Shown here one piece after another: positions 277-11,750 of a stretch of 11,750 nucleotides of DNA. Both the position numbers and the translations under genes were made by a program. Source of the DNA: a virus (lineage: Duplodnaviria; Heunggongvirae; Uroviricota; Caudoviricetes); IMG/VR virus record IMGVR_UViG_2585427760_000003, one strand, 5' to 3'. Position 1 is the stretch's first letter, and each line of letters begins with the position of its first letter. The notes beneath the pieces were generated by a model that made no database searches, was not told where the DNA came from, and saw only the letters and a list, made by a program, of their open reading frames with translations.

Positions 277-299
277 ATCAATAAGTTGGAGTCATTACC
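277..299. repeat. IS1 terminal inverted repeat (IRR), ~23 bp
   Basis: Sequence ...caataagttggagtcattacc, complement of the GGTAATGACTCCAACTTATTG IS1 end; abuts fimZ-derived sequence at position 300. Confidence 0.8.
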
Positions 300-693
300 G
301 CGTTTCGCTGGGAAAAAACGTGTATCCGGAGAGGATCATCTGAACGGCATGAAAAATATCATTCTGATCATTGCATTTACTGACAAAACCGTTAGCACCA
401 GCTTGTATCGCTCTGCCAGCATAAAAGCATTCTGATTTCGATGATAAAAATAACACTTTCACTGTGCTCTGGATTTGTTTGATCCTTTTCAGGAAGGTAA
501 AACCGTCTGTTCCGGGCAAGTCTATATCCATAATGATTAAATCAACAGGACGGGTTCGGAGATAATCGATGGTTATGCGGTAATCATCCGTTTTCAGGAC
601 AATCTGCAATTCACTGTTTTTTTGCAACAGAACTTCAATAGACATTCTGATGATAGGATGAGTATCCATAATGATCACCGACGTTGGTTTCAT
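295..693 (-). pseudogene. fimZ: fimZ response regulator (LuxR family), 3'-truncated by the IS1 insertion; encodes receiver domain only and loses the C-terminal HTH
   Basis: Minus-strand translation MKPTSVIIMDTHPIIRMSIEVLLQKNSELQIVLKTDDYRITIDYLRTRPVDLIIMDIDLPGTDGFTFLKRIK...SGYTFFPSET matches E. coli FimZ residues 1-131 from memory; the frame then reads R and a TAA stop (295-297) supplied by the IS1 end instead of native ...LNYIKSN. Upstream in-frame Met at 756 is probably not the start. Confidence 0.85.
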
Positions 694-935
694 AGTTACC
701 AGTCTCATAGGAGCGGACAATTTTCCGTTAGGGCGGTAAATTGTACTTTGATACATGAAAATACGGGTTTTCTTGATTCAGACGCGCAGCGATGTGCATT
801 TGTTTGCCGCTATAGCGAAATAAATCAGAAAATCAGACGCGGTCGTTCACTTGTTCAGCAACCAGATCAAAAGCCATTGACTCAGCAAGGGTTGACCGTA
901 TAATTCACGCGATTACACCGCATTGCGGTATCAAC

Positions 936-1012
936 GCGCCCTTAGCTCAGTTGGATAGAGCAACGACCTTCTAAGTCGTGGGCCGCAGGTTCGAATCCTG
1001 CAGGGCGCGCCA
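936..1012 (+). tRNA. argU: tRNA-Arg (anticodon UCU)
   Basis: 77-nt cloverleaf GCGCCCTTAGCTCAGTTGGATAGAGCAACGACCTTCTAAGTCGTGGGCCGCAGGTTCGAATCCTGCAGGGCGCGCCA; acceptor stem GCGCCCT/AGGGCGC, anticodon loop CTTCTAA with TCT at 970-972, T-loop GTTCGAATC, 3' CCA. Confidence 0.95.
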
Positions 1013-1027
1013 TTACAATTCAATCAG

Positions 1028-2191
1028 TTACGCCTTCTTTATATCCTCCATAATTCCAGAGTGGGACATATTTGGGACATTATCACCAAAAATGTCGTCT
1101 ATTTTCCTCGCATGCTCTGTCAAATGATTAGGCGCAAGGTGAGCATACCTACGAACCATTTCTATGGACTCCCATCCGCCCATTTCCTGAAGCACTGATA
1201 ATGGGACGCCTGACTGAATCAGCCAGCTTGCCCAGGTGTGTCTGAGGTCATGGAAACGGAAATCTTCAATTCCTGCACGACGACAAGCTGATAGCCATGA
1301 TGTCTTGCTGTCGATGCGCATCTTCCTGACCGCAGGCGTTGATGTTCCATCTGCTCGCTTAGCCGCCTTGGTATGTACAAACACCCATTTGTGATGCTTG
1401 CCTATTTGATCACGCAACACTTTACAGGCGGTATCGTTCAGCGCCACACCAATGGCGCGGTTTGATTTGCTCTCTTCTGGATTCACCCAGGCAACTCGTC
1501 GCTGCATGTCGATTTGTTGCCATTCCAGATTTATGATGTTCGACTTTCTCAGACCAGTTGCCAGCGCAAACTTGACGACAGATTTCAGTGGTTCGGGGCA
1601 CTCATCAATAAGGCGTTTTGCTTCCTCCTTTTCCAGCCATCTGACTCGCTTGTTTCTGACCGCTGGTATCTTGATGACAGGCGCTTTTTCCAGCCACTTC
1701 CAGTCGCGTTCTGCAGCACGGAGAATGGCCTTTATCATGGCAAGATGCTTTGCCTTTGTCTGAGTTGATACTGGCTTTGGTTCATAAACAGGCAGTTCTT
1801 TACCTTTCCTGATGGCGGCCTGAACTTTCTGTTTCCATATTTCTTTCGTCTTTCTGTTATGCATTCTGCTTACAGCAGAGTAAATCTTTGCCTCCGAGAT
1901 ATCTTTAAGCCTTATACCCTCAAAATGTTCAAGCCAGAACTCAATCCGGCTTTTATCTGAATCGAGAGATTTTTTATCAGCTTTTTCCTCAAGCCATCTT
2001 AGGCAGGCCTCTTCAAAAGTGACATCAGGTAAATCCCCTAGCTTTTCTACTCGCCAGAGTTCTGCTTTTCGCTTGTCGTGCAACTCCTGAGCTTGCCGCT
2101 TGTCCTTTGTGCCAAGAGATTCCTTAATTCGTTTCCCGCCCGGGAGCGAATACGAGGCATACCATATTTCATTTCTGCGGAAGAGTGACAT
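1028..2191 (-). CDS. intD: Prophage integrase, tyrosine recombinase family (DLP12 IntD-like), 387 aa
   Basis: 387-aa minus-strand ORF immediately adjacent to the tRNA 3' end; C-terminal catalytic region with [11 protein letters not shown] and VRRYAHL (catalytic Tyr) motifs; N-terminus [35 protein letters not shown]. Confidence 0.93.
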
Positions 2192-2418
2192 TTTCTTTCC
2201 TCTGTTATGCCATCACCCGCGCTCACCTGGACAGTATGCAGCGGAGACTGAAGCGCCGCAATGCAGGCTTGCCGTGTTGTGAGGTAAGGAGATTTTGGCT
2301 TGGTTGGATCTTTACGTGTTGCCTGTAGGCGGCCTGTTCGTATCCAGTTGGTGGCGGTTGGTCTGGATATCTTAAGAAACTGACAGGCCTCATCGAGTGT
2401 GAGGCTGTATGATTCCAT
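2047..2418 (-). CDS. Excisionase-like HTH protein (AlpA/Xis family); ORF is unusually long (123 codons) and overlaps the integrase start by 145 nt, so the 3' extension may not be genuine
   Basis: ATG at 2418-2416 preceded by GAGGT SD; N-terminal [31 protein letters not shown] resembles the HTH of AlpA-type excisionases; position directly upstream of int. Confidence 0.6.
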
Positions 2419-2668
2419 GGTTACCTCTGCTTTTTGAACGCATGTCACGTAACTTCTTAATGTGTTCTGCCGTTTCGATCTCTTCTGCTATCCGATCTGC
2501 ATCAGCTTTATTCACAGGTTCAAAGTCATGATTAAAGCGGAACATGCTGGCGATACATGTTCTGCCTTTTCGGATGTAGTGAACTTTGTTGTGGGTAGAA
2601 CGCAGGATTTTGCAGGGAGTGCCGTGGTGGTCGACGTACCAGGTGTTAGGAAAAATGATTCTGAACAT
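2390..2668 (-). CDS. Hypothetical protein, 92 aa (no family recognised)
   Basis: ORF with GAGGTG SD 5 nt upstream of ATG at 2668; codirectional with and between the TraR-like gene and xis; overlaps the xis start by 29 nt. Confidence 0.5.
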   Translation of the reverse strand: MFRIIFPNTWYVDHHGTPCKILRSTHNKVHYIRKGRTCIASMFRFNHDFEPVNKADADRIAEEIETAEHIKKLRDMRSKSRGNHGIIQPHTR

Positions 2669-2715
2669 TTTTACACCTCAGTTGGACGATGTTGAAATTT
2701 GCTGCTTTGAGGCCA

Positions 2716-2934
2716 TCACAGTCCCCATTGTTTGTTCTTAAGTTCGATCTCCTCCTGGCAACTCGCACAAGTCCGACAACCCTGAACAGCCAGGCGTCTT
2801 CGCTCATCTATCGGATCGCCACACTCACAACAATGAGTTGCGGATACAGTCTGGTAGTTCAGACGACGCATTTTTATTGCTGTATTGCGCTGTAATTCTT
2901 CGATTTCTGATGCTGAATCAATGATGTCTGCCAT
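2716..2934 (-). CDS. TraR/DksA-family C4-type zinc-finger protein, 72 aa
   Basis: Translation contains CECGDPIDERRRLAVQGCRTCASCQ, matching the TraR/DksA signature (compare F-plasmid TraR CEACGNPIPEARRKIFPGVTLCVECQ from memory). Confidence 0.75.
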   Translation of the reverse strand: MADIIDSASEIEELQRNTAIKMRRLNYQTVSATHCCECGDPIDERRRLAVQGCRTCASCQEEIELKNKQWGL

Positions 2935-2985
2935 CTTTCATTAATCCCTGAATTGTTGGTTAATACGCTTGAGGGTAAATGCGAA

Positions 2986-3011
2986 TAATAAAAAAGGAGC
3001 CTGTAGCTCCC
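2986..3011 (-). terminator. Candidate rho-independent terminator or attenuator on the minus strand, upstream of the TraR-like gene
   Basis: Minus-strand RNA GGGAGC-UACAG-GCUCCU followed by UUUUUUAUUAUU; short stem (5-6 bp), so weak; lies inside a 29-codon minus-strand ORF (2941-3030). Confidence 0.4.
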
Positions 3012-3161
3012 TGATGATTTTGCTTTTCATGTTCACCGTTCCTTAAAGACGCCGTTCAACATGCCGATCGCCATGCTTAAATGAGTCGGTGTGAATCCCA
3101 TCAGCGTTACCGTTTCGCGGTGCTTCTTTAGTATCTGGCTGAAAGAGGGGGTTATTAAGGC

Positions 3162-3524
3162 GTGAATACCTACAGCATCACATTACCCTGGCCTCCGAGC
3201 AATAATCGCTATTACCGCCATAATCGCGGGCGCACGCACGTCAGCGCAGAGGGGCAGGCATACCGCGATAACGTCGCCCGAATCATTAAAAACGCAATGC
3301 TGGATATCGGCCTGGCTATGCCTGTGAAAATCCGCATTGAGTGCCACATGCCGGATCGCCGTCGCCGTGACCTGGATAATCTGCAAAAAGCCGCTTTTGA
3401 CGCACTCACTAAAGCAGGTTTCTGGCTGGATGATGCTCAGGTCGTTGATTACCGCGTTGTGAAGATGCCTGTTACCAAAGGTGGGAGGCTGGAACTGACC
3501 ATCACCGAAATGGGGAATGAATGA
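3162..3524 (+). CDS. rusA: Holliday-junction resolvase RusA (crossover junction endodeoxyribonuclease), 120 aa, GTG start
   Basis: Translation [120 protein letters not shown] matches E. coli RusA from memory. Confidence 0.93.
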
Positions 3525-3661
3525 TGTTTGAGTTTTATATGGCAGAACTTCTTCGCCACCGCTGGGGGCATCTGCGCTTATATCGTTTCCCCGGTTCTGT
3601 TTTGACCGATTACCGAATACTGAAGAGTTACGCCAAAACCCTGACAGGAGCAGGAGTATGA
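3521..3661 (+). CDS. ylcG: Small nin-region protein YlcG-like, 46 aa
   Basis: ATG overlaps the rusA stop (ATGA); translation [46 protein letters not shown]; below the 60-aa ORF-track cutoff, identified by hand translation and synteny between rusA and quuD. Confidence 0.75.
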
Positions 3662-3746
3662 AGTCAGAGATAACAATCAACTAATACTGTTTTGTTGATT
3701 TTTGCTTGTAATTGGCGTTTTGGTCTGATTTTTGTGGAGTAAGTTG

Positions 3747-4130
3747 ATGCGTGATATTCAGATGGTTCTTGAGCGTTGGGGAGCGTGGGCGGCTAATAAT
3801 CATGAAGATGTGACCTGGTCGTCCATTGCCGCCGGTTTTAAGGGATTAATTCCTTCAAAAGTAAAATCTCGCCCGCAATGTTGTGACGATGACGCGATGA
3901 TCATTTGCGGGTGCATGGCCCGTCTGAAAAAGAACAACAGCGATTTGCACGATTTATTAGTAGATTATTATATAGTCGGTATGACATTCATGTCACTGGC
4001 AGGTAAGCATTGCTGCTCTGATGGTTATATCGGGAAAAGGTTACAAAAGGCTGAGGGCATAATTGAAGGGATGTTAATGGCATTAGATATCCGGTTAGAG
4101 ATGGATATCGTTGTTAATAACTCTAATTAA
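3747..4130 (+). CDS. quuD: Late-gene antiterminator Q homolog (phage-82-type Q, DLP12 QuuD), 127 aa
   Basis: [67 protein letters not shown]...; ATG at 3747 with GGAG SD at 3736-3739; the ORF track starts at an upstream TTG (3732), which I consider less likely. Confidence 0.88.
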
Positions 4131-4150
4131 TACGCCAATTATTTACTAAA

Positions 4151-4181
4151 AGTTATTAAAAATGGGGCGTTGAAGCGCCCC
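4151..4181 (-). terminator. Rho-independent terminator on minus strand (GC-rich hairpin plus U-tract), likely ending the nmpC transcript
   Basis: GGGGCG (4164-4169) / CGCCCC (4176-4181) stem with 6-nt loop; on the minus strand it is followed by AUUUUUAAUAACU. On the plus strand it is followed by an A-run, so it is not a plus-strand terminator. Confidence 0.6.
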
Positions 4182-4318
4182 CAAAAATAAAGGGTAATAT
4201 ATAACAGAAGGTTTGTATAGTTAGAAGCAAGGTTGTGCTTCTAAAGGAAGTGGCTTGAGGGAGCCACTTATATGTTGGGGAGGCAAAGCCTCCCACAACA
4301 TATCTTTTAGTAATCAAA

Positions 4319-5401
4319 TTAGAACTGGTAAACCATACCTACAGCAACGATATCATCGGTAGCAACGCCAGATGCTTTCGTGAAATCGCTCTTATCAATC
4401 AGGTTGATTTTGTAGTCAACAAAAGTGGACATATTTTTGTTGAAGTAATAGGTTGCACCTACATCAACATATTCAACCAGGTCCTGATCACCCCAAACAC
4501 CCAAGTCTTTTCCTTTAGAATGCAGGTAAGCAACGGATGGACGCAGGCCGAAGTCGAACTGATATTGTGCAACAGCTTCGAAGTTTTGTGCTTTGTTGGC
4601 AATATGGTTATTACCAAAAACAGTCATGTTCTGGGTTTCAGAATAGGTGGTGGCCAGATAGATGTTGTTCGCATCATATTTCAGACCAGCTGCCCATACT
4701 TCAGCATTTTGACCAGAAGCATTCAGACCGTTGTTACCGTAGATAACCTGATTATTAGTGCGATCAGATTTAGCATAGGTTGCACCCACGCCGAATCCTT
4801 CATACTCATAAGTAGTTGAGAAACCGAAACCATCGCCATTAGCTTCAGTTACTTCATTTCGGTCATTTTTGCCCTGATACTGAGCTGCAAAGTTCAGGCC
4901 ATCAACCAGACCAAAGAAGTCGTTGTTACGATAAGTTGCAACACCTGTGGTGCGACCAGTCATGAACACATCTGTTTGGGTCCAGGTATCGCCACCGAAT
5001 TCTGGCAGAACGTCAGTCCACGCACCGATGTCGTATGCTACACCGTAGTTACGGCCGTAATCGATTGAGCCGTAGTCACCGAATTTCAGGCCAGCGAAGG
5101 CAAGACGGGTTTTATCTTTGGAGGAACCTTGAGATTCAGCGCGGTTGCCTTTGAATTCATATTCCCACTGACCGAAACCAGTCAGTTGATCGTTGATTTG
5201 GGTTTCACCTTTGAAGCCAAGACGGGCATAAGTAGTATCACCATCATCTGCATCATTAGAGGAGAAGTAGTGCTTAGCATTAACTTTCCCGTACAGATCC
5301 AGCTTGTTACTGTCTTTATTATAAATTTCAGCTGCCTGAGCAGACATCGCCATCAGTACTGATGCAGCTACAGCAGAAATTGCCACTGTTAATTTTTTCA
5401 T
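4319..5401 (-). CDS. nmpC: Outer-membrane general porin NmpC (OmpC/OmpF/PhoE family), apparently intact, 360 aa
   Basis: Signal peptide [23 protein letters not shown] then [16 protein letters not shown]; porin motifs throughout; C-terminal ...VGMVYQF typical of beta-barrel porins; placed on the opposite strand between Q and the lysis genes as in DLP12. Confidence 0.9.
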
Positions 5402-5829
5402 CGTGAGCCCTTTTTTTTGAACTATTATTAAAAAATGATGTCACTGCGCGATAAATATTCATCTAATCAATGTGATTATTTCAAGATGTAAGTTTTGGTT
5501 TCTCGTTTAATTTGTGAAGTAGATCTCTATTTTTATCTGAACTTTTTTCTATCGAATCCTATTCATGGCTCTTGGCTGAATAAAAATAAATCTATTAGCC
5601 AATTTATATTAATGGCTGTTATTTATAAGTGCTCTATAATTTGAAGGTTCAATTTAAATTGGCTAAAAATAACGCTGGAAATTATTTGTTGGTTATTTGT
5701 TGAGATTTTCTTATGTATTTGTAGTGGTGTTTTCAATACTCGGTAGCATTCTCGCAAATATCATTTAGTGGTTTACGTACGTAAAAAATTGGTTATGCTG
5801 TTAAGAGTGGTTACTTCGTTACACAGCTT

Positions 5830-5862
5830 AAACCCGCCGTCGAGCGGGTTTTTCCATTTTTT
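5830..5862 (+). terminator. Rho-independent terminator upstream of essD; candidate tR'-like terminator of a short late-promoter transcript
   Basis: AACCCGC (5831-5837) / GCGGGTT (5844-5850) stem, 6-nt loop, followed by TTTCCATTTTTT; sits ~110 bp upstream of the holin start. Confidence 0.55.
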
Positions 5863-5974
5863 GAGTCTCGATATTAGCTGATAACCCAATACCTGAGTTA
5901 TTCACTGACTCCGAGTCTGTTACGTTTCGTAGTATTCCCTCAATTTACACCCGCTTTGTCTGCGAGGTGGGGTT

Positions 5975-6190
5975 ATGAAATCCATGGATAAGTTAACAAC
6001 GGGTGTCGCCTATGGCACCTCAGCAGGTAGTGCCGGGTACTGGTTTTTACAGCTGCTCGATAAAGTCACGCCCTCACAGTGGGCAGCAATAGGTGTGCTG
6101 GGTAGCCTGGTATTTGGCCTGCTGACGTACCTGACAAACCTTTATTTCAAGATTAAAGAAGATAAGCGCAAGGCTGCGAGAGGTGAATAA
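5975..6190 (+). CDS. essD: Phage-21-type class II holin (pinholin S21 homolog) with dual-start motif, 71 aa
   Basis: [71 protein letters not shown]; two TM segments; Met1 and Met4 (5975 and 5984) give the holin/antiholin dual start; GAGGTGG SD upstream. Confidence 0.9.
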
Positions 6191-6687
6191 TGCCTCCATC
6201 ATTACGAAAAGCTGTTGCTGCTGCTATTGGTGGCGGGGCTATTGCTATAGCATCTGTGTTAATCACTGGCCCAAGTGGTAACGATGGTCTGGAAGGTGTG
6301 AGACATAATCCTTACAAAGACATAGTTGGTGTATGGACTGTATGTTACGGGCATACAGGAAAAGACATCATTCCCGGTAAAACGTATACCGAAGCAGAGT
6401 GCAAAGCCCTCCTGAATAAAGACCTTGCCACTGTCGCCAGACAAATTAACCGGTACATCAAAGTCGATATACCGGAAACAACGCGCGGCGCTCTTTACTC
6501 GTTCGTCTACAACGTGGGTGCTGGCAATTTCAGAACATCGACGCTTCTTCGCAAAATAAACCAGGGTGATATTAAAGGCGCATGTGATCAGCTACGGCGC
6601 TGGACATACGCTGGCGGTAATCAATGGAAAGGACTGATGACTCGCCGTGAGATTGAGCGTGAAGTCTGTTTGTGGGGGAAACAATGA
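6190..6687 (+). CDS. rrrD: SAR endolysin (T4-lysozyme-like muramidase with N-terminal signal-anchor-release domain), 165 aa
   Basis: N-terminal Gly/Ala-rich hydrophobic SAR segment [20 protein letters not shown] followed by lysozyme catalytic region [23 protein letters not shown]; start overlaps the essD stop (TAATG). Confidence 0.9.
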
Positions 6688-7142
6688 GCAGAGTAACCGC
6701 GATTATCTCCGCTCTGGTTATCTGCATCATCGTCTGCCTGTCATTGGCTGTTAATCATTACCGTGATAACGCAATCGCCTACAAAGAGCAGCGCGATAAC
6801 AAGGCCAGTGAACTGGAGAAGGCGAACGCCACCATCGCTGACATGCGGAAGCGTCAACGTGATGTAGCAGAACTCGACGCAAGATACACAAAGGAGCTTG
6901 CTGATGCTAACGCGACTATCGAAAGTCTCCGTGCTGATGTTTCTGCTGGGCGTAAGCGCCTGCAAGTCGCCGCCACCTGTGCAAAGTCAACGACCGGAGC
7001 CAGCGGCATGGGCGATGGAGAAAGCCCAGGACTTACAGCAGATGCTGAACTCAATTATTACCGTCTCCGAAGTGGAATCGACAAGATAACCGCGCAGGTT
7101 AACTACCTGCAGGAATACATCAGGACGCAATGCCTGAAATAA
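6684..7142 (+). CDS. rzpD: Spanin inner-membrane subunit Rz (i-spanin), 152 aa
   Basis: ATG overlaps the rrrD stop (ATGA); N-terminal TM segment [20 protein letters not shown] then coiled-coil-like periplasmic domain; ORF track starts at an upstream GTG (6672). Confidence 0.85.
6904..7089 (+). CDS. rzoD: Spanin outer-membrane lipoprotein subunit Rz1 (o-spanin), embedded in the +1 frame of rzpD, 61 aa
   Basis: AAGGAG SD at 6891-6896, ATG at 6904; lipoprotein signal [20 protein letters not shown] with lipobox Cys, proline-rich mature region [13 protein letters not shown]; fully nested inside rzpD. Confidence 0.75.
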
Positions 7143-7174
7143 TTTTTTTGCAAATCACAAAGTCCATTTAATGA

Positions 7175-7198
7175 GCCTCGCGATGCGGGGCTTTTTTT
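7175..7198 (+). terminator. Rho-independent terminator after the lysis cassette
   Basis: GCCTCGC-GAT-GCGGGGC stem-loop (7 bp including one G-U) followed by TTTTTTT, ~33 bp downstream of the rzpD stop. Confidence 0.65.
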
Positions 7199-7437
7199 AC
7201 ATCTGAATTTCACAGCGCATCTCACGCGCATATTACATCACCCGAGCCTTTCAGAAAGTTGAGCCTGAGAACTGCCGTATATGGTGGCGACCATCTCGGG
7301 GCGGCTTTTCTGTGAGACAGGCTCACTTTCTAAAAGGTAAAGACGCTATGAACCAATTAGAAGAAAAGCTTCAAAGAATGATTTCCTTATACAAGGAAGA
7401 TAACTGCCAAAAAGTTCCTTAAAACATCGCAGAGTTA

Positions 7438-7836
7438 ATGGAATTGGCAAGTGAATTTTCTGGCATGCTTAAGTCGTCAGGTGTTCGGTCAGCGTTCTTT
7501 GTTGAAATGCTGATGCACGGCGGACTTATGGCAACAATGAGACGTGTAATGGAAGACCAGAGAAAAGAACCTCCTCAGGTATACGTTTTGTCATCGAAGA
7601 AAACTGGGCTAACCAAAATTGGGTATTCATCCAACATTCCACAACGCATCAAATCGCTTGGCAACTCTGGACCAGACTGCTTGAAGCTTGAGTGCCTGAT
7701 CCCTGGTGGAAGAGAAACTGAAAACATGCTTCATCGCAAATTTGCCGCAAAGAGAAAGCACGGTGAATGGTTCGCCCTGTCCAAGGATGACATTGAGGGA
7801 TTGAAATCTGTAGCGATTACTTCTGATGGCTATTAA
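7438..7836 (+). CDS. T5orf172 / GIY-YIG-like domain protein, 132 aa (cargo gene at the position occupied by bor in lambda)
   Basis: C-terminal ~85 residues QVYVLSSKKTGLTKIGYSSNIPQRIKSLGNSGPDCLKLECLIPGGRETENMLHRKFAAKRKHGEWFALSKDDIEGL fit the T5orf172 pattern as I recall it (YVL...KIGYT/S...R...EWF); weak SD; an upstream in-frame 24-codon ORF (7348-7422) is separated by a single TAA. Confidence 0.6.
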   Translation: MELASEFSGMLKSSGVRSAFFVEMLMHGGLMATMRRVMEDQRKEPPQVYVLSSKKTGLTKIGYSSNIPQRIKSLGNSGPDCLKLECLIPGGRETENMLHRKFAAKRKHGEWFALSKDDIEGLKSVAITSDGY

Positions 7837-8514
7837 TGCTTGTTTAGAGCAATTTTCATAACAACTCTTCATTACAAAGCCCATCTACTGGTGGGCTTGA
7901 TAATGAAACCGTGATTTACATCCCCACAATCCGGGTATGTAAAAGATAGTTCAGGCGAGAACGGATTTAACTAAATCTGTGCGCCACCAGTTAACGGCAG
8001 TACCACGAAACAACCCAAGCCAGTAAGTGGGGAAATAACACCGGCAGCCACTGAAAGATGAACCTCCTGCCTTATGGCAAAAAAGATTCTTTGTGGTGGC
8101 GGACTGATGGAAAGACATCCTAATTTCAGCCAAACATTGAAGGAGTTGTTATGTCAGCAGAAGGTTTCAATAACCCATCAAAATTCCGGGATGAGTGGGA
8201 TAGCAGCGTAAAGAGTAAGTGATGCCATCACAAAAGCCATTCCCTACAGAGTGGCTTTGATAATGGCTTATACCCTACACGGGATAACTTAACTGATATC
8301 CTTTTTAAAGGATAAAGGTATTCAAGCCTGACACATCATGCGCTGTATCGTCGCCGTATTCCCGTATTAACAGAGACCGTAGCCCGACGGGGAACTCCTT
8401 CTGCGCGAGTGTGCGGGAATAATCAAAAACGATGCACACCGGGGTTACCGGGTACACATATTTCATCATGCCAGCGAGTCCGGTTCTGGCACGGAAGAAA
8501 CCGGACGTTATGAT

Positions 8515-8925
8515 TTAGTGCGGAAATATTTGTGTAGTGTTCTGAATGTTCTCAGTAAAGAGTAATGAATTATCAAAGGTATAGTAATACCTTTTGTTTT
8601 CGTGGATATTTGTAATCCATCTGAAAACCCCTGCTGTAGCAAGATTTTTCCTGTATTCGTAAAATGATAACTCTCCTGATTTGAATCCTTTTAATGTGGT
8701 TTCTATAAGGCATTTATTTTTTGAAAATCTTACATTTACAACCTTACCCTGTCCTTTTATTAAAACCGTATTATCGTTTTCAAGAACAAGATGAATATTC
8801 TCTGTGGCTAAATAGTAAATGTAATGTGAGACATTGTGACGTTTTAGTTCAGAATAAAACCAGTGATAGTTTAAATTATTTCGCACTTTATCGAATATTT
8901 GTTTAAAAATGGCAACCTGAGCCAT
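8515..8925 (-). CDS. Hypothetical AT-rich protein, 136 aa, no signal peptide or TM segment; possibly equivalent to the protein annotated in K-12 DLP12 as YbcV (recollection, unverified)
   Basis: Minus-strand ORF in a visibly AT-rich segment; likely start at the second Met (8925, GGAAGG-like SD 7 nt upstream) giving [31 protein letters not shown]...; Tyr/Asn-rich, soluble-looking. Confidence 0.6.
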
Positions 8926-8982
8926 TGTAGTACCTTCCATGTGATATGAAGGTACCTAGTCTGCACGATTATCTAAATTGCT

Positions 8983-9216
8983 TCAATCTGGTCTGACCTG
9001 CTTTCTGAGCAATTCAGTAATGTCACTCTTTTCTTTGTTTGCTTCAGGCGAAACTCTTTTTTCTGAGCACAGTCTTCGGCGGCAGGCTTCAATGACCCAG
9101 GCTGAGAAATTCCCGGACCCTTTTTGATCAAGAGCGATGTTAATTTGTTCAATCATTTGGTTAGGAAAGCGGATGTTGCGGGTTGTTGTTCTGCGGGTTC
9201 TGTTCTTCGTTGACAT
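8983..9216 (-). CDS. Small putative ribbon-helix-helix (CopG/Arc-like) DNA-binding protein, 77 aa
   Basis: Basic N-terminus MSTKNRTRRTTTRNIRFPNQMIEQINIALDQKGSGNFSAWVIEACRRRL fits a beta-strand/helix/helix RHH layout; codirectional with and 57 bp upstream of the 136-aa gene; ~200 bp from cosN. Confidence 0.5.
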   Translation of the reverse strand: MSTKNRTRRTTTRNIRFPNQMIEQINIALDQKGSGNFSAWVIEACRRRLCSEKRVSPEANKEKSDITELLRKQVRPD

Positions 9217-9359
9217 GAGGTTGTCCCGTATTCAGTGTCGCTGATTTGTATTGTCTGAAGTTGTTTTTACGTTAAGTTGATGCAGATCAATTAATATGAT
9301 ACCTGCGTCATAATTGATTATTTGACGTGGTTTGATGGCGTAGATGCACGTTGTGACAT

Positions 9360-9604
9360 GCAGATGATAATTATTATCATTTTGCGGGTCCTTTCCGGCG
9401 ATCCGACAGGTTACGGGGCGGCGACCTCGCGGGTTTTCGCTATTTATGAAAATTTTCCGGTTTAAGGCGTTTCCGTTCTTCTTCGTCGTAACTTAATGTT
9501 TTTATTTAAAATACCCCCTGAAAAGAAAGGAAACGACAGGTGCTGAAAACGAACTTTTGGGCCTTTGTCGTTTCCTTTCTCTGTTTTTGGCCGTGGAATG
9601 AACA
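9360..9604. other. Lambda-type cos site: cosQ/cosN/cosB, with the cosN 12-nt cohesive-end sequence GGGCGGCGACCT at 9416-9427
   Basis: 9380-9600 is near-identical to my recollection of the lambda genome left end and preceding right end (..GTTACG GGGCGGCGACCT CGCGGGTTTTCGCTATTTATGAAAATTTTCCGGTTTAAGGCG...); inverted Nu1-binding R-site-like repeats AGAAAGGAAACGACAG / CTGTCGTTTCCTTTCT at ~9523-9580. Confidence 0.85.
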
Positions 9605-10429
9605 ATGGAAGTCAACAAAAAGCAGCTGGCTGACATTTTCGGTGCGAGTATCCGTACCATTCAGAACTGGCAGGAACAGGGAATGCCCGTTCTGCGAGGC
9701 GGTGGCAAGGGTAATGAGGTGCTTTATGACTCTGCCGCCGTTATAAGATGGTATGCCGAAAGGGATGCTGAAATTGAGAACGAAAAGCTGCGCCGGGAAG
9801 TTGAAGAACTGCGGCAGGCCAGCGAGACAGATCTCCAGCCAGGGACTATTGAGTACGAACGCCATCGACTTACGCGTGCGCAGGCCGACGCACAGGAGCT
9901 GAAAAATGCCAGAGACTCCGCTGAAGTGGTGGAAACCGCATTCTGTACTTTCGTGCTGTCGCGGATCGCAGGTGAAATTGCCAGTATTCTCGACGGGATC
10001 CCCCTGTCGGTGCAGCGGCGTTTCCCGAACGGCACGGTCGATGTGTTCCGCGGCTGGGTCAGCAGTATCGGTAAGGCGGTGACGGCGAAGGAAGTGATTA
10101 CCCGCACGGTGAAAGTCACCAACGTAGGACGTCCGTCGATGGCAGAAGATCGCAGCACGGTAACAGCGGCAACCGGCATGACCGTGACGCCTGCCAGCAC
10201 CTCGGTGGTGAAAGGGCAGAGCACGACGCTGACCGTGGCATTCCAGCCGGAAGGCGCAACCGACAAGAGCTTCCGTGCGGTGTCTGCGGATAAAACAAAA
10301 GCCACCGTGTCGGTCAGTGGTATGACCATCACCGTGAAAGGTGTTGCTGCAGGCAAGGTCAACATTCCGGTCGTATCCGGTAATGGTGAGTTTGCTGCGG
10401 TTGCAGAAATCAACGTCACCGCCAGTTAA
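9605..10429 (+). CDS. nohD: Chimeric ORF: terminase small subunit Nu1 homolog (residues ~1-140) fused in frame to the C-terminal Ig-like (Big_2) domain of major tail protein V; 274 aa
   Basis: [46 protein letters not shown]...[14 protein letters not shown] matches lambda Nu1; from ...[60 protein letters not shown]... to ...AEINVTAS matches the lambda gpV C-terminus from memory; switch at ~10018-10027 within shared CGTTTCCCG. The nohD symbol applies to the Nu1-like part only. Confidence 0.85.
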
Positions 10430-10444
10430 TCCGGAGAGTCAGCG

Positions 10445-10795
10445 ATGTTCCTGAAAACCGAATCATTTGAACATAACGGTGTGACCGTCACGCTTTCTGA
10501 ACTGTCAGCCCTGCAGCGTATTGAGCATCTCGCCCTGATGAAACGACAGGCAGAACAGGCGGAGTCAGACAGCAACCGGAAGTTTACTGTGGAAGACGCC
10601 ATCAGAACCGGCGCTTTTGTGGTGGCGATGTCCCTGTGGCATAACCATCCGCAGAAGACAAAGCTGCCTTCTATGAATGAATTGGTGCTCATACGCACTC
10701 CGTTGCGATTGGTTCACATGGACACACCATCACCGTTAACGCTGCTGGTAACGCGGAAAACACCGTCAAAAACATCGCATTTAACTATATTGTGA
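10445..10795 (+). pseudogene. Tail assembly chaperone G remnant (first ~79 codons) joined out of frame to the 3' end of a side tail fiber (stf) gene
   Basis: MFLKTESFEHNGVTVTLSELSALQRIEHLALMKRQAEQAESDSNRKFTVEDAIRTGAF..WHNHPQKT..PSMNE matches lambda gpG; from ~10681 a different frame reads [41 protein letters not shown] (stop 10804-10806), the His-x-His-rich C-terminus of Stf-type tail fibers. Confidence 0.8.
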
Positions 10796-10805
10796 GGCTT
10801 GCATA

Positions 10806-11390
10806 ATGGCATTCAGAATGAGTGAACAACCACGGACCATAAAAATTTATAATCTGCTGGCCGGAACTAATGAATTTATTGGTGAAGGTGATGCATATAT
10901 TCCGCCTCATACAGGTCTGCCAGCAAACAGTACCGATATTGCACCGCCAGATATTCCTGCTGGCTTTGTGGCTGTTTTCAACAGTGATGAGGCATCGTGG
11001 CATCTCGTTGAAGACCATCGGGGTAAAACGGTTTATGACGTAGCGTCAGGGGACGCGTTATTTATTTCTGAACTCGGTCCGTTACCGGAAAATGTTACCT
11101 GGTTATCGCCGGAAGGGGAGTTTCAGAAGTGGAACGGCACAGCCTGGGTGAAAGATGCAGAAGCAGAAAAACTGTTCCGGATCCGGGAGGCGGAAGAAAC
11201 AAAAAACAGCCTGATGCAGGTAGCCAGTGAGCATATTGCGCCACTTCAGGATGCTGTAGATCTGGAAATCGCAACGGAGGAAGAAACCTCATTGCTGGAA
11301 GCCTGGAAAAAGTATCGGGTGTTGCTGAACCGTGTTGATACATCAACTGCACCTGATATTGAGTGGCCTACGAACCCTGTCAGGGAGTAA
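10806..11390 (+). CDS. tfaD: Tail fiber assembly protein Tfa, 194 aa, intact
   Basis: [79 protein letters not shown]... is near-identical to lambda Tfa with scattered substitutions; ATG overlaps the stf-frame stop (TAATG). The tfaD symbol is by synteny with DLP12. Confidence 0.85.
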
Positions 11391-11444
11391 TCATTGGGAT
11401 TATGCCGCAGCACGTCTTAAGCAAGAACGTGCTGCGGTTGGATG

Positions 11445-11750
11445 CTATTTTTTCCCTGAAGCGGAAAACATTACTACAGTACCTTGAACCTTGGTTTTAA
11501 CATTCTCGAAATGCTCTGAGAGTATATGTGTTAAGCCTTCTTCGGAATCTTTTGTGTTTGAAAAGATGCCTTTCTGATTGTAAATGCGCATCAGTTTTTG
11601 ACCGAAGCTATTGTGCACAACTCCATCGCCAAGAATTGTGGCTCCGTATAGAGTTCCATCGTCAGTTAAGGCCTGCGCCGCATTGCGTATTACACAGCTT
11701 TTTGTAGATATATTTCCAGGCAGGCAGTGAAGAAGGTAAAACATGGAAAT
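11445..11750 (-). CDS. Hypothetical protein, C-terminal portion (5' end probably beyond the window edge)
   Basis: Minus-strand ORF open to the window edge (two further in-frame codons upstream of the ATG at 11744); no family recognised; position corresponds to the gene convergent with tfa in lambdoid prophages. Confidence 0.4.
   Translation of the reverse strand: MSMFYLLHCLPGNISTKSCVIRNAAQALTDDGTLYGATILGDGVVHNSFGQKLMRIYNQKGIFSNTKDSEEGLTHILSEHFENVKTKVQGTVVMFSASGKK

Follow-up and report, generated by a model that had tools for sequence, protein, structure and literature searches.

T5orf172 proteins belong to the GIY-YIG superfamily (PMC8263062, PMC10448857), and for one of them, Odn (Gp88) of phage ICP1, DNA cleavage requiring the equivalent of a conserved glutamate discussed below has been proven (PMC8263062). 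Odn, the T5orf172 homing genes of ICP1 and CapR of PLE represent the same T5orf172 GIY-YIG subclass (PMC8263062, PMC10448857, PMC8096241) as a gene that we analysed at positions 7348–7836 of the IMG/VR virus record IMGVR_UViG_2585427760_000003, an 11,750-nucleotide stretch of DNA referred to here as the window. The ICP1 and PLE proteins are larger and carry a RepA_N or zinc-finger DNA-binding domain, whereas the protein of the window has an N-terminal three-helix bundle only. Its closest described relatives are gp64 of HK106 (YP_007151734.1) and the Chlobot homologue (PHROG 4284, RefSeq WP_016245257.1), which are the same 489-nucleotide gene with 99.6% nucleotide identity at the same position behind the Rz terminator and a conserved leader. 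These copies are intact and have GAA as codon 25, whereas the window copy has TAA at this codon and resides in a defective prophage. The P22-like Salmonella phages epsilon34 (gp68) and g341c (gp64) have a gene of the same length (161 amino acids), the same two-domain architecture and the same genomic slot with flanks of 86–96% identity, but protein identity is only 33%, as for a second, deeply diverged allele of this cargo gene.

Comparison of these sequences indicates that 7348–7836 is almost certainly a single gene of 162 codons which was split by a point mutation. An earlier note on this DNA had described two open reading frames (ORFs) of 24 and 132 codons and proposed either a recent nonsense mutation within a longer gene or a coupled leader ORF; the former proposal stood and the latter did not. 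Both ORFs are in the same frame; between them lie the TAA codon and, up to the ATG at 7438, five codons for N, I, A, E and L, as the note had read them, and its other sequence statements hold as well. Compared with the family profile PHROG 4284 (171 positions), both fragments match in register, the 24 upstream residues at positions 10–33 (E = 4e-7) and the 132-residue ORF at positions 40–171 (E = 7e-71). HK106, Chlobot and E. coli prophages share this coding sequence of 489 nucleotides, and the intact gene is known as HK106 gp64, PHROG 4284 or, in RefSeq, ‘GIY-YIG nuclease family protein’. In HK106 and Chlobot the unbroken gene corresponds to the entire interval, and at the stop codon a G in place of T at 7420 is the sole difference. 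The orthologue comparison likewise revealed the sense codon GAA in 13 of 13 other aligned copies, and a 489-nucleotide gene is annotated for each of four chromosomal copies of E. coli that were checked. A 63-nucleotide probe with the TAA at its centre was found exactly in three of 82 complete E. coli genomes carrying the gene, while the other 79 showed one or two mismatches. In a large protein collection, the exact intact protein occurred on at least 1000 contigs as compared to 116 for the exact 132-residue protein. Two genomes with the TAA codon, originating from China and The Gambia, were examined and contain the same degraded DLP12-type remnant at the tRNA-Arg gene, with the same truncated terminase and loss of the head genes. 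Because of the profile register, the GAA codon of the other copies, the probe counts and this shared decayed remnant, the stop is, by sequence comparison, a nonsense mutation that is specific to a lineage and lies in a decaying prophage, and not a designed leader ORF. Further independent lesions of the gene are present in public data.

A true leader peptide whose translation is coupled to that of a distinct 132-codon gene would agree with the distance of only 15 nucleotides from the stop to the ATG at 7438 and with the stronger ribosome-binding site of the upstream ORF. Calculated pairing with the anti-Shine-Dalgarno sequence of 16S rRNA amounts to −3.9 kcal/mol upstream of the ATG at 7348 and −1.7 kcal/mol upstream of that at 7438, which bears out the ranking of the two sites in the note. 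However, both free phages, all 13 other copies and about 96% of the gene-carrying E. coli genomes have GAA. In addition, the family profile accommodates the 24 residues at its N-terminal end, and in distant homologues the N-terminal domain is uninterrupted, so that the chance of a genuine leader peptide is next to nil. Programmed read-through or recoding at the TAA was likewise rejected, as nearly all natural copies simply have GAA.

The window copy is thus a pseudogene, from which at best a truncated product of 132 residues is made by inefficient re-initiation. According to the structural model described below, this product would be without helix 1 and the first part of helix 2 and is probably both poorly made and poorly folded. 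One could speculate that it is nevertheless functional, for example as an attenuated nuclease domesticated for host defence or maintenance, since the T5orf172 domain is whole in the 132-residue ORF, the ATG follows closely behind the stop, and the occurrence of the exact protein on 116 contigs indicates a circulating allele with a lineage in both China and The Gambia. We regard this as improbable in view of the very weak ribosome-binding site (−1.7 kcal/mol) and a start within helix 2, by which helix 1 of a confidently predicted bundle is lost. Furthermore, the N-terminal region is kept across the family, other lesions have arisen independently and the prophage is visibly decaying. RefSeq lists the 132-residue remnant as an ordinary protein, which in fact is the tail of a broken gene for 162 residues.

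The domain assignment of the earlier note, a T5orf172/GIY-YIG-like domain, was confirmed by Pfam, by the PHROG match and by fold comparison. Within the 132-residue ORF, both MUG113 (PF13455; E = 4.4e-15, 56.5 bits, cut-off 22.3) and T5orf172 (PF10544; E = 2.2e-10, 41.4 bits, cut-off 20) scored above their cut-offs, with matches spanning residues 48–121, and the NCBIfam models did not match the product. A profile search of the PDB sequences gave six weak matches (E 0.04–1.1), five of which are GIY-YIG proteins aligned at the same motif. The structure was assessed with the AlphaFold model of a family member that is intact and 98% identical, computed from an alignment of 103 sequences (pLDDT, the predicted local distance difference test score, of 89.7 over the full length). 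It consists of three long helices at about residues 1–15, 23–43 and 49–71 (162-residue numbering), forming a bundle of about residues 1–71, and a following β-β-α-β-α-β-α core. Fold comparison identified this core as the α/β fold of GIY-YIG proteins, for which the note had proposed structure prediction. The structural neighbours of the N-terminal bundle are generic helical bundles; those of the protein include PD-T4-3, a single-gene GIY-YIG defence protein of an E. coli prophage.

An alignment of 103 homologous sequences revealed Lys90, Gly92, Arg100, Glu125 and His129 as invariant and Tyr79, Ile91 and Gly139-Glu140-Trp-Phe as at least 90% conserved. By motif alignment, Glu140 corresponds to Glu75 of I-TevI and to Glu180 of Odn. 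Canonical GIY-YIG nucleases such as the I-TevI catalytic domain, SLX1, the N-domain of UvrC and PD-T4-3 have Tyr-Ile-Gly where the window protein has Lys-Ile-Gly. The domain is very probably of the T5orf172/GIY-YIG fold, and analogy with Odn favours, with more reserve, an active nuclease as the intact form. The two-domain architecture defines a small family of about 12 clusters at 50% identity, whereas the T5orf172 domain alone is very widespread with 38,319 representatives at E ≤ 0.001.

The second result concerns the location of the gene. We are rather confident, on the basis of aligned loci, that it occupies an exchangeable one-gene slot with a structured leader, located between the lysis and the packaging genes. 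The left boundary coincides exactly with the ATG: the flank from the terminator through the ATG (7174–7352) is 86–88% identical in a comparison set of HK106, epsilon34, HK620, SPN3UB and one Stx2a phage, and different genes follow behind the same leader, namely KilA-N genes in HK620 and SPN3UB, a Rha gene in the Stx2a phage and the 33%-identical T5orf172 gene in epsilon34. The right boundary is a downstream block with a hairpin that lacks a T-run; conservation of the block between phages of E. coli and of Salmonella reaches 96%. HK620 hkbK (KilA-N) and the Rha genes of Stx and P22-like phages lie in the identical slot behind the same leader, and homology to the window stops at the ATG and returns at the same downstream point, but their products belong to other families (KilA-N or Rha plus ORF11CD3) without a nuclease domain.

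The 148-nucleotide leader was detected in 155 phage records, Stx-converting phages among them, and full-length relatives of the cargo gene in 8 of 50,697 phage records. The slot also occurs in at least 120 IMG/VR contigs (loci L012–L134). In 120 contigs gathered with a leader pattern, the cargo comprised several types of Rha and of KilA-N, which have the C-terminal ORF11CD3 domain in common, three T5orf172 architectures, one HNH_3 endonuclease and a small number of ORFs without assignment. None of these 120 contigs had an empty slot. The cargo is one ORF, or two in loci of the HK620 type, and the downstream block, where found, lies at least 497 nucleotides past the ATG and always after some cargo ORF, in the IMG/VR contigs a few to about 65 nucleotides past its end. 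Compared with HK106 and locus L099, the gene is 99.0–99.6% identical while the leader reaches 88–91% and the 5′ half of Rz 82–86%; that the gene outmatches its flanks indicates recent transfer with breakpoints at the edges of the cassette. A homologue of 49% identity has holin and endolysin genes on one side and a terminase on the other, all of them unrelated, indicating that the position is conserved rather than the neighbours.

The earlier note had placed the gene directly after the lysis terminator at the position of bor, which proved correct: the terminator hairpin follows the spanin gene, and borD of K-12 DLP12 is located at the corresponding place on the opposite strand. Like bor of lambda, borD lies in the interval from the spanin genes to ybcV or the packaging genes, but bor is unrelated, encoding a lipoprotein. 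Homology of the window to K-12 DLP12 is lost at 6953 within the spanin gene and is back at 8339, the borD segment of K-12 substituting for the whole module of leader, cargo and block. The proposal of the note that this is a slot for cargo is therefore retained, while a slot of the bor or defence-island type is not, considering that it is otherwise filled by Rha, KilA-N, HNH and further T5orf172 genes.

Some further observations were made at this locus. The downstream block is split in DLP12-type prophages by a 129-bp insert (8120–8248), instead of which HK106, HK620, epsilon34 and Chlobot have 24 bp. The insert contains a good ribosome-binding site with a 23-codon ORF (8151–8222) and ends in a hairpin and GATAATG like 7876–7907, as if it were a second mini-cassette. 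Inside the downstream block, a 26-codon hydrophobic ORF (7971–8051, minus strand; MAAGVISPLTGLGCFVVLPLTGGAQI) follows AGGAGG; it may encode a small membrane peptide or have arisen by chance. In E. coli BE2-5 (L136, locus 6609–7947), the same tRNA-Arg site harbours a remnant in a more advanced state of decay, which is without Q, holin, lysozyme and half of the spanin gene and has kept the leader and the intact gene for 162 residues.

The leader preceding the slot is structured. It comprises an intrinsic terminator, which was found by a terminator scan and whose homologous hairpin is annotated as rho-independent terminator in HK106 and epsilon34, and, behind it, a long hairpin. RNA of positions 7243–7342 has a minimum free energy of −44.3 kcal/mol (z = −5.65), and none of 200 shuffled sequences folded as well. 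Across 57 distinct copies of the leader, 98.9% of the pair cells are standard pairs, as compared to 44–58% when the partner column is slid. Four stem pairs, located in the outer stem, show compensatory double changes, and the covariation score exceeds those of all 500 shuffles, although these sequences are closely related and part of the sample was collected by a pattern which fixes the inner stem, both of which weaken the argument. As G-U variants are frequent in the stem (C-G 26 and U-G 22 at one pair, for example), an RNA structure is favoured over a DNA palindrome. The mid-stem GAGCCTG/CAGGCTC is supported by conservation only, because one clade is altered on both sides to a U-U mismatch. 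The interior of the hairpin (about 7274–7312) has a GCCG/CGGC stem followed by TTTTCT (UUUUCU as RNA) and resembles a second terminator. A conserved AAAGG motif precedes the cargo ATG at short and roughly constant spacing in 58 leader copies; in the window, the Shine-Dalgarno sequence of the cargo gene lies within the 3′ arm of the hairpin.

Four GAGCCT/AGGCTC motifs upstream of the gene had been noticed earlier. They are indeed present, at 7173, 7244 and 7261 on the plus strand and at 7319–7324 on the minus strand, but do not form a separate repeat family: the terminator stem accounts for one copy and the long inverted repeat for the other three, each as part of an RNA hairpin arm. In the whole window, six occurrences against 4.4 expected are not unusual, and the four within about 150 bp are a local cluster because the copies lie in hairpin arms. 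A dispersed repeat or binding motif was consequently rejected. The leader also contains, upstream of the hairpin, a tandem direct repeat of 11 nucleotides, whose GCGCAT...GCGC core is conserved in the leaders of seven loci and which may be a protein-binding site; its units, GCGCATCTCAC and GCGCATATTAC, are spaced one helical turn.

Rfam had no match to the leader (7143–7347, E ≤ 1) or to the downstream block, a scan for the sigma-70 consensus between the terminator and the gene (7200–7347) revealed no promoter, and we found nothing specific in the literature on the leader, on regulation by Rha or IHF, or on the slot. The rha genes of P22 and phi80 are reported to be IHF-dependent (Henthorn and Friedman 1995). 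It is tempting to speculate that the leader of about 150 nucleotides, with two terminator-like hairpins nested in a stem of 21 bp by which the ribosome-binding site is concealed, is a cis-regulatory RNA not described before and that, together with the downstream block, it defines a universal one-gene slot in enterobacterial lambdoid phages, whose occupants would be analogous, late-expressed and hairpin-gated genes acting in phage conflicts, for example through processing by RNase III as in the lambda N leader. We offer this generalisation tentatively and consider it rather doubtful in its full extent.

Taken together, the gene is likely a lambdoid accessory nuclease gene in an exchange slot, inactivated in the window by the G7420T mutation. 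Because it lies on the strand of the late operon, 3′ of pR′-Q and behind terminators, established lambdoid biology suggests that it would be read only by Q-modified polymerase, late in the lytic cycle, and its translation would be gated by the leader hairpin in which the ribosome-binding site is buried. The intact protein would be a non-essential DNA endonuclease by precedent of its family, possibly dimerising via the helical bundle, and may act in conflicts between phages or mobile elements by exclusion or by homing-like gene conversion. Such a selfish or competitive role fits the sporadic distribution, the near-identity across phages and the site beside the packaging genes; we hold it to be a credible prospect of somewhat less than even probability.

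Several findings weigh against the accessory nuclease and its late expression. The canonical Pfam GIY-YIG model (PF01541) scored 12.9 bits, under its cut-off of 22.6, and Lys90 occupies the place of the second tyrosine in the canonical motif 2. Pfam detected no domain outside T5orf172 and no recognisable sequence-specific DNA-binding domain in the protein. The other occupants of the slot, Rha and KilA-N, are types of DNA-binding regulators and not nucleases. That the gene is expressed only late is deduced from the order of genes and from the terminators, and one remnant devoid of Q and of lysis genes still has an intact copy, which slightly favours some use in the lysogen or may simply reflect recent decay.

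This persistence would agree with a ‘moron’ for defence or lysogenic conversion, a counterpart of bor which is expressed from the prophage and cuts incoming phage DNA during dormancy. The upstream terminator and the downstream hairpin are moron-like, the GC content of the cargo gene (about 43–44%) is below that of the lysis genes (49–55%), and the prophage defence protein PD-T4-3 is among the structural neighbours. A GIY-YIG nuclease is among the validated defence proteins of Vassallo et al. (PMC9519451), and PADLOC gave a weak match to the candidate PDC-S57 (E = 4e-6). This match, however, covers positions 3–84 of a model of 212 positions and reflects the shared domain only, and at E ≤ 1 PADLOC gave no further family, PD-T4-3 included, if it is modelled there. 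Further points against a moron are that the gene is co-oriented with the late operon, has no sigma-70-like promoter of its own behind the terminator and has its ribosome-binding site buried in a hairpin of −44 kcal/mol, and that the Rha and KilA-N genes that fill the same slot are no known defence genes. We consider the moron unlikely, though a serious rival; the gene probably does not serve lysogenic conversion.

A free-standing homing endonuclease gene would cut phage genomes which lack the gene and copy itself into them, as do T5orf172 genes of ICP1 and T5-like phages. T5orf172 genes have been proposed as homing endonucleases and often adjoin terminase genes (PMC10448857), in accordance with the location between lysis and packaging genes. 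The sporadic occurrence in phage records given above and an identity of at least 99% across HK97-like, lambda-like and prophage backgrounds with flanks of 82–96% would also be explained. On the other hand, the slot is always filled between the same two boundary points, in agreement with an exchange of cassettes through homologous flanks, and none of the 120 leader-bearing contigs offers an empty target site. In addition, the protein is small (162 residues) and has neither the zinc finger (CapR, DUF723) nor any other of the DNA-binding modules that most T5orf172 homing genes possess (PMC10448857). We therefore attach only a minor probability to homing and, as neither a DNA-binding module nor an empty site was found, prefer a conflict nuclease in an exchangeable slot to a homing endonuclease.

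Alternatively, the protein might be no nuclease but a DNA-binding regulator or an antirepressor-like factor equivalent to the Rha and KilA-N proteins, given that Rha+ORF11CD3 and KilA-N+ORF11CD3 proteins fill the slot one for one. T5orf172 was reportedly first described, by Iyer et al. in 2002, as a DNA-binding module which is shuffled with KilA-N, Bro-N and Rha domains. The satellite protein CapR is a repressor containing T5orf172 (PMC8096241). Invariance or near-invariance of the GIY-YIG catalytic tyrosine, arginine and glutamate in 103 homologues is, however, unexpected for pure binding, and in one contig the slot is filled by an HNH endonuclease. A purely regulatory function appears unlikely to us, though likewise a serious rival, and we retain the accessory nuclease as the preferred explanation.

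As the gene is a member of an already catalogued T5orf172 family and a pseudogene here, its leader and slot are of more interest. One structured leader drives at least four unrelated and poorly understood families (Rha, KilA-N, HNH and T5orf172) in more than 150 sequenced phages, and the slot provides a defined place with a shared regulatory element for testing what these cargo genes have in common. The combination of a helical bundle with T5orf172 would be a compact model for the roles of T5orf172 nucleases in temperate phages. The coordinates of all features of the locus are given in Table 1.

Table 1. Features of the cargo gene, its leader and the downstream block (positions in the window).
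Feature	Position	Strand	Remarks
Intrinsic terminator after spanin gene	7173–7199	+	Stem 7173–7193 and T-run; holds the first GAGCCT
Tandem 11-nucleotide direct repeat	7215–7236	+	GCGCATCTCAC / GCGCATATTAC; in conserved leader, upstream of hairpin
Leader hairpin	7246–7338	+	Arms 7246–7267 (5′) and 7318–7338 (3′); stem of about 21 bp
Shine-Dalgarno sequence AAGG of cargo gene	7334–7337	+	Within 3′ arm of leader hairpin
Ancestral 162-codon gene (almost certainly one gene)	7348–7836	+	HK106 gp64 type; helical N-domain and T5orf172 nuclease domain; interrupted
N-terminal 24-codon fragment	7348–7422 with stop (codons 7348–7419)	+	MNQLEEKLQRMISLYKEDNCQKVP
Nonsense codon TAA	7420–7422	+	G to T at 7420; Glu25 (GAA) to stop
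Residual 132-codon ORF	7438–7836	+	ATG start; RefSeq WP_000417740.1; first residue is Met31
T5orf172/MUG113 (GIY-YIG superfamily) domain	7579–7800	+	About residues 77–150 of 162
Codon of Tyr79	7582–7584	+	Key codon
Codon of Lys90	7615–7617	+	Key codon
Codon of Arg100	7645–7647	+	Key codon
Codon of Glu140	7765–7767	+	Key codon
Downstream block, right boundary	7870–8119		Includes hairpin 7876–7898; 96% identical to HK620 after its cargo
Continuation of downstream block	8249–8316		Split off by 129-bp insert 8120–8248 in DLP12-type prophages

The window represents a DLP12-type cryptic prophage at the tRNA-Arg gene of E. coli and is 99.99% identical to E. coli strain 14EC033 over positions 300–11750. 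Its genes are arranged in the order integrase, rusA, Q antiterminator, porin (opposite strand), holin, lysozyme, Rz-type spanin (ending at 7142) and the cargo region, 3′ of which lie genes resembling ybcV and ylcI, also on the opposite strand, and a truncated gene for the small terminase subunit. Positions 1–300 are an IS1 fragment adjoining a truncated fimZ (153-residue ORF, 295–756, minus strand); as fimZ is complete in 14EC033, the source strain is distinguished by this IS1 insertion. The porin gene (4319–5401, minus strand) is nmpC/ompC-like, encodes 360 residues and is intact, whereas the K-12 copy is broken by IS5. In a 274-codon ORF (9605–10429), an N-terminal portion of the small terminase subunit is fused with an Ig-like domain, and homology to K-12 stops in this ORF at 10027, a deletion junction at which the head and most tail genes were removed. 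Within the tail-fibre-assembly gene, an IS009 RNA (Rfam RF02111, 229 bits, E = 6e-57) was identified at 11149–11347 on the plus strand.

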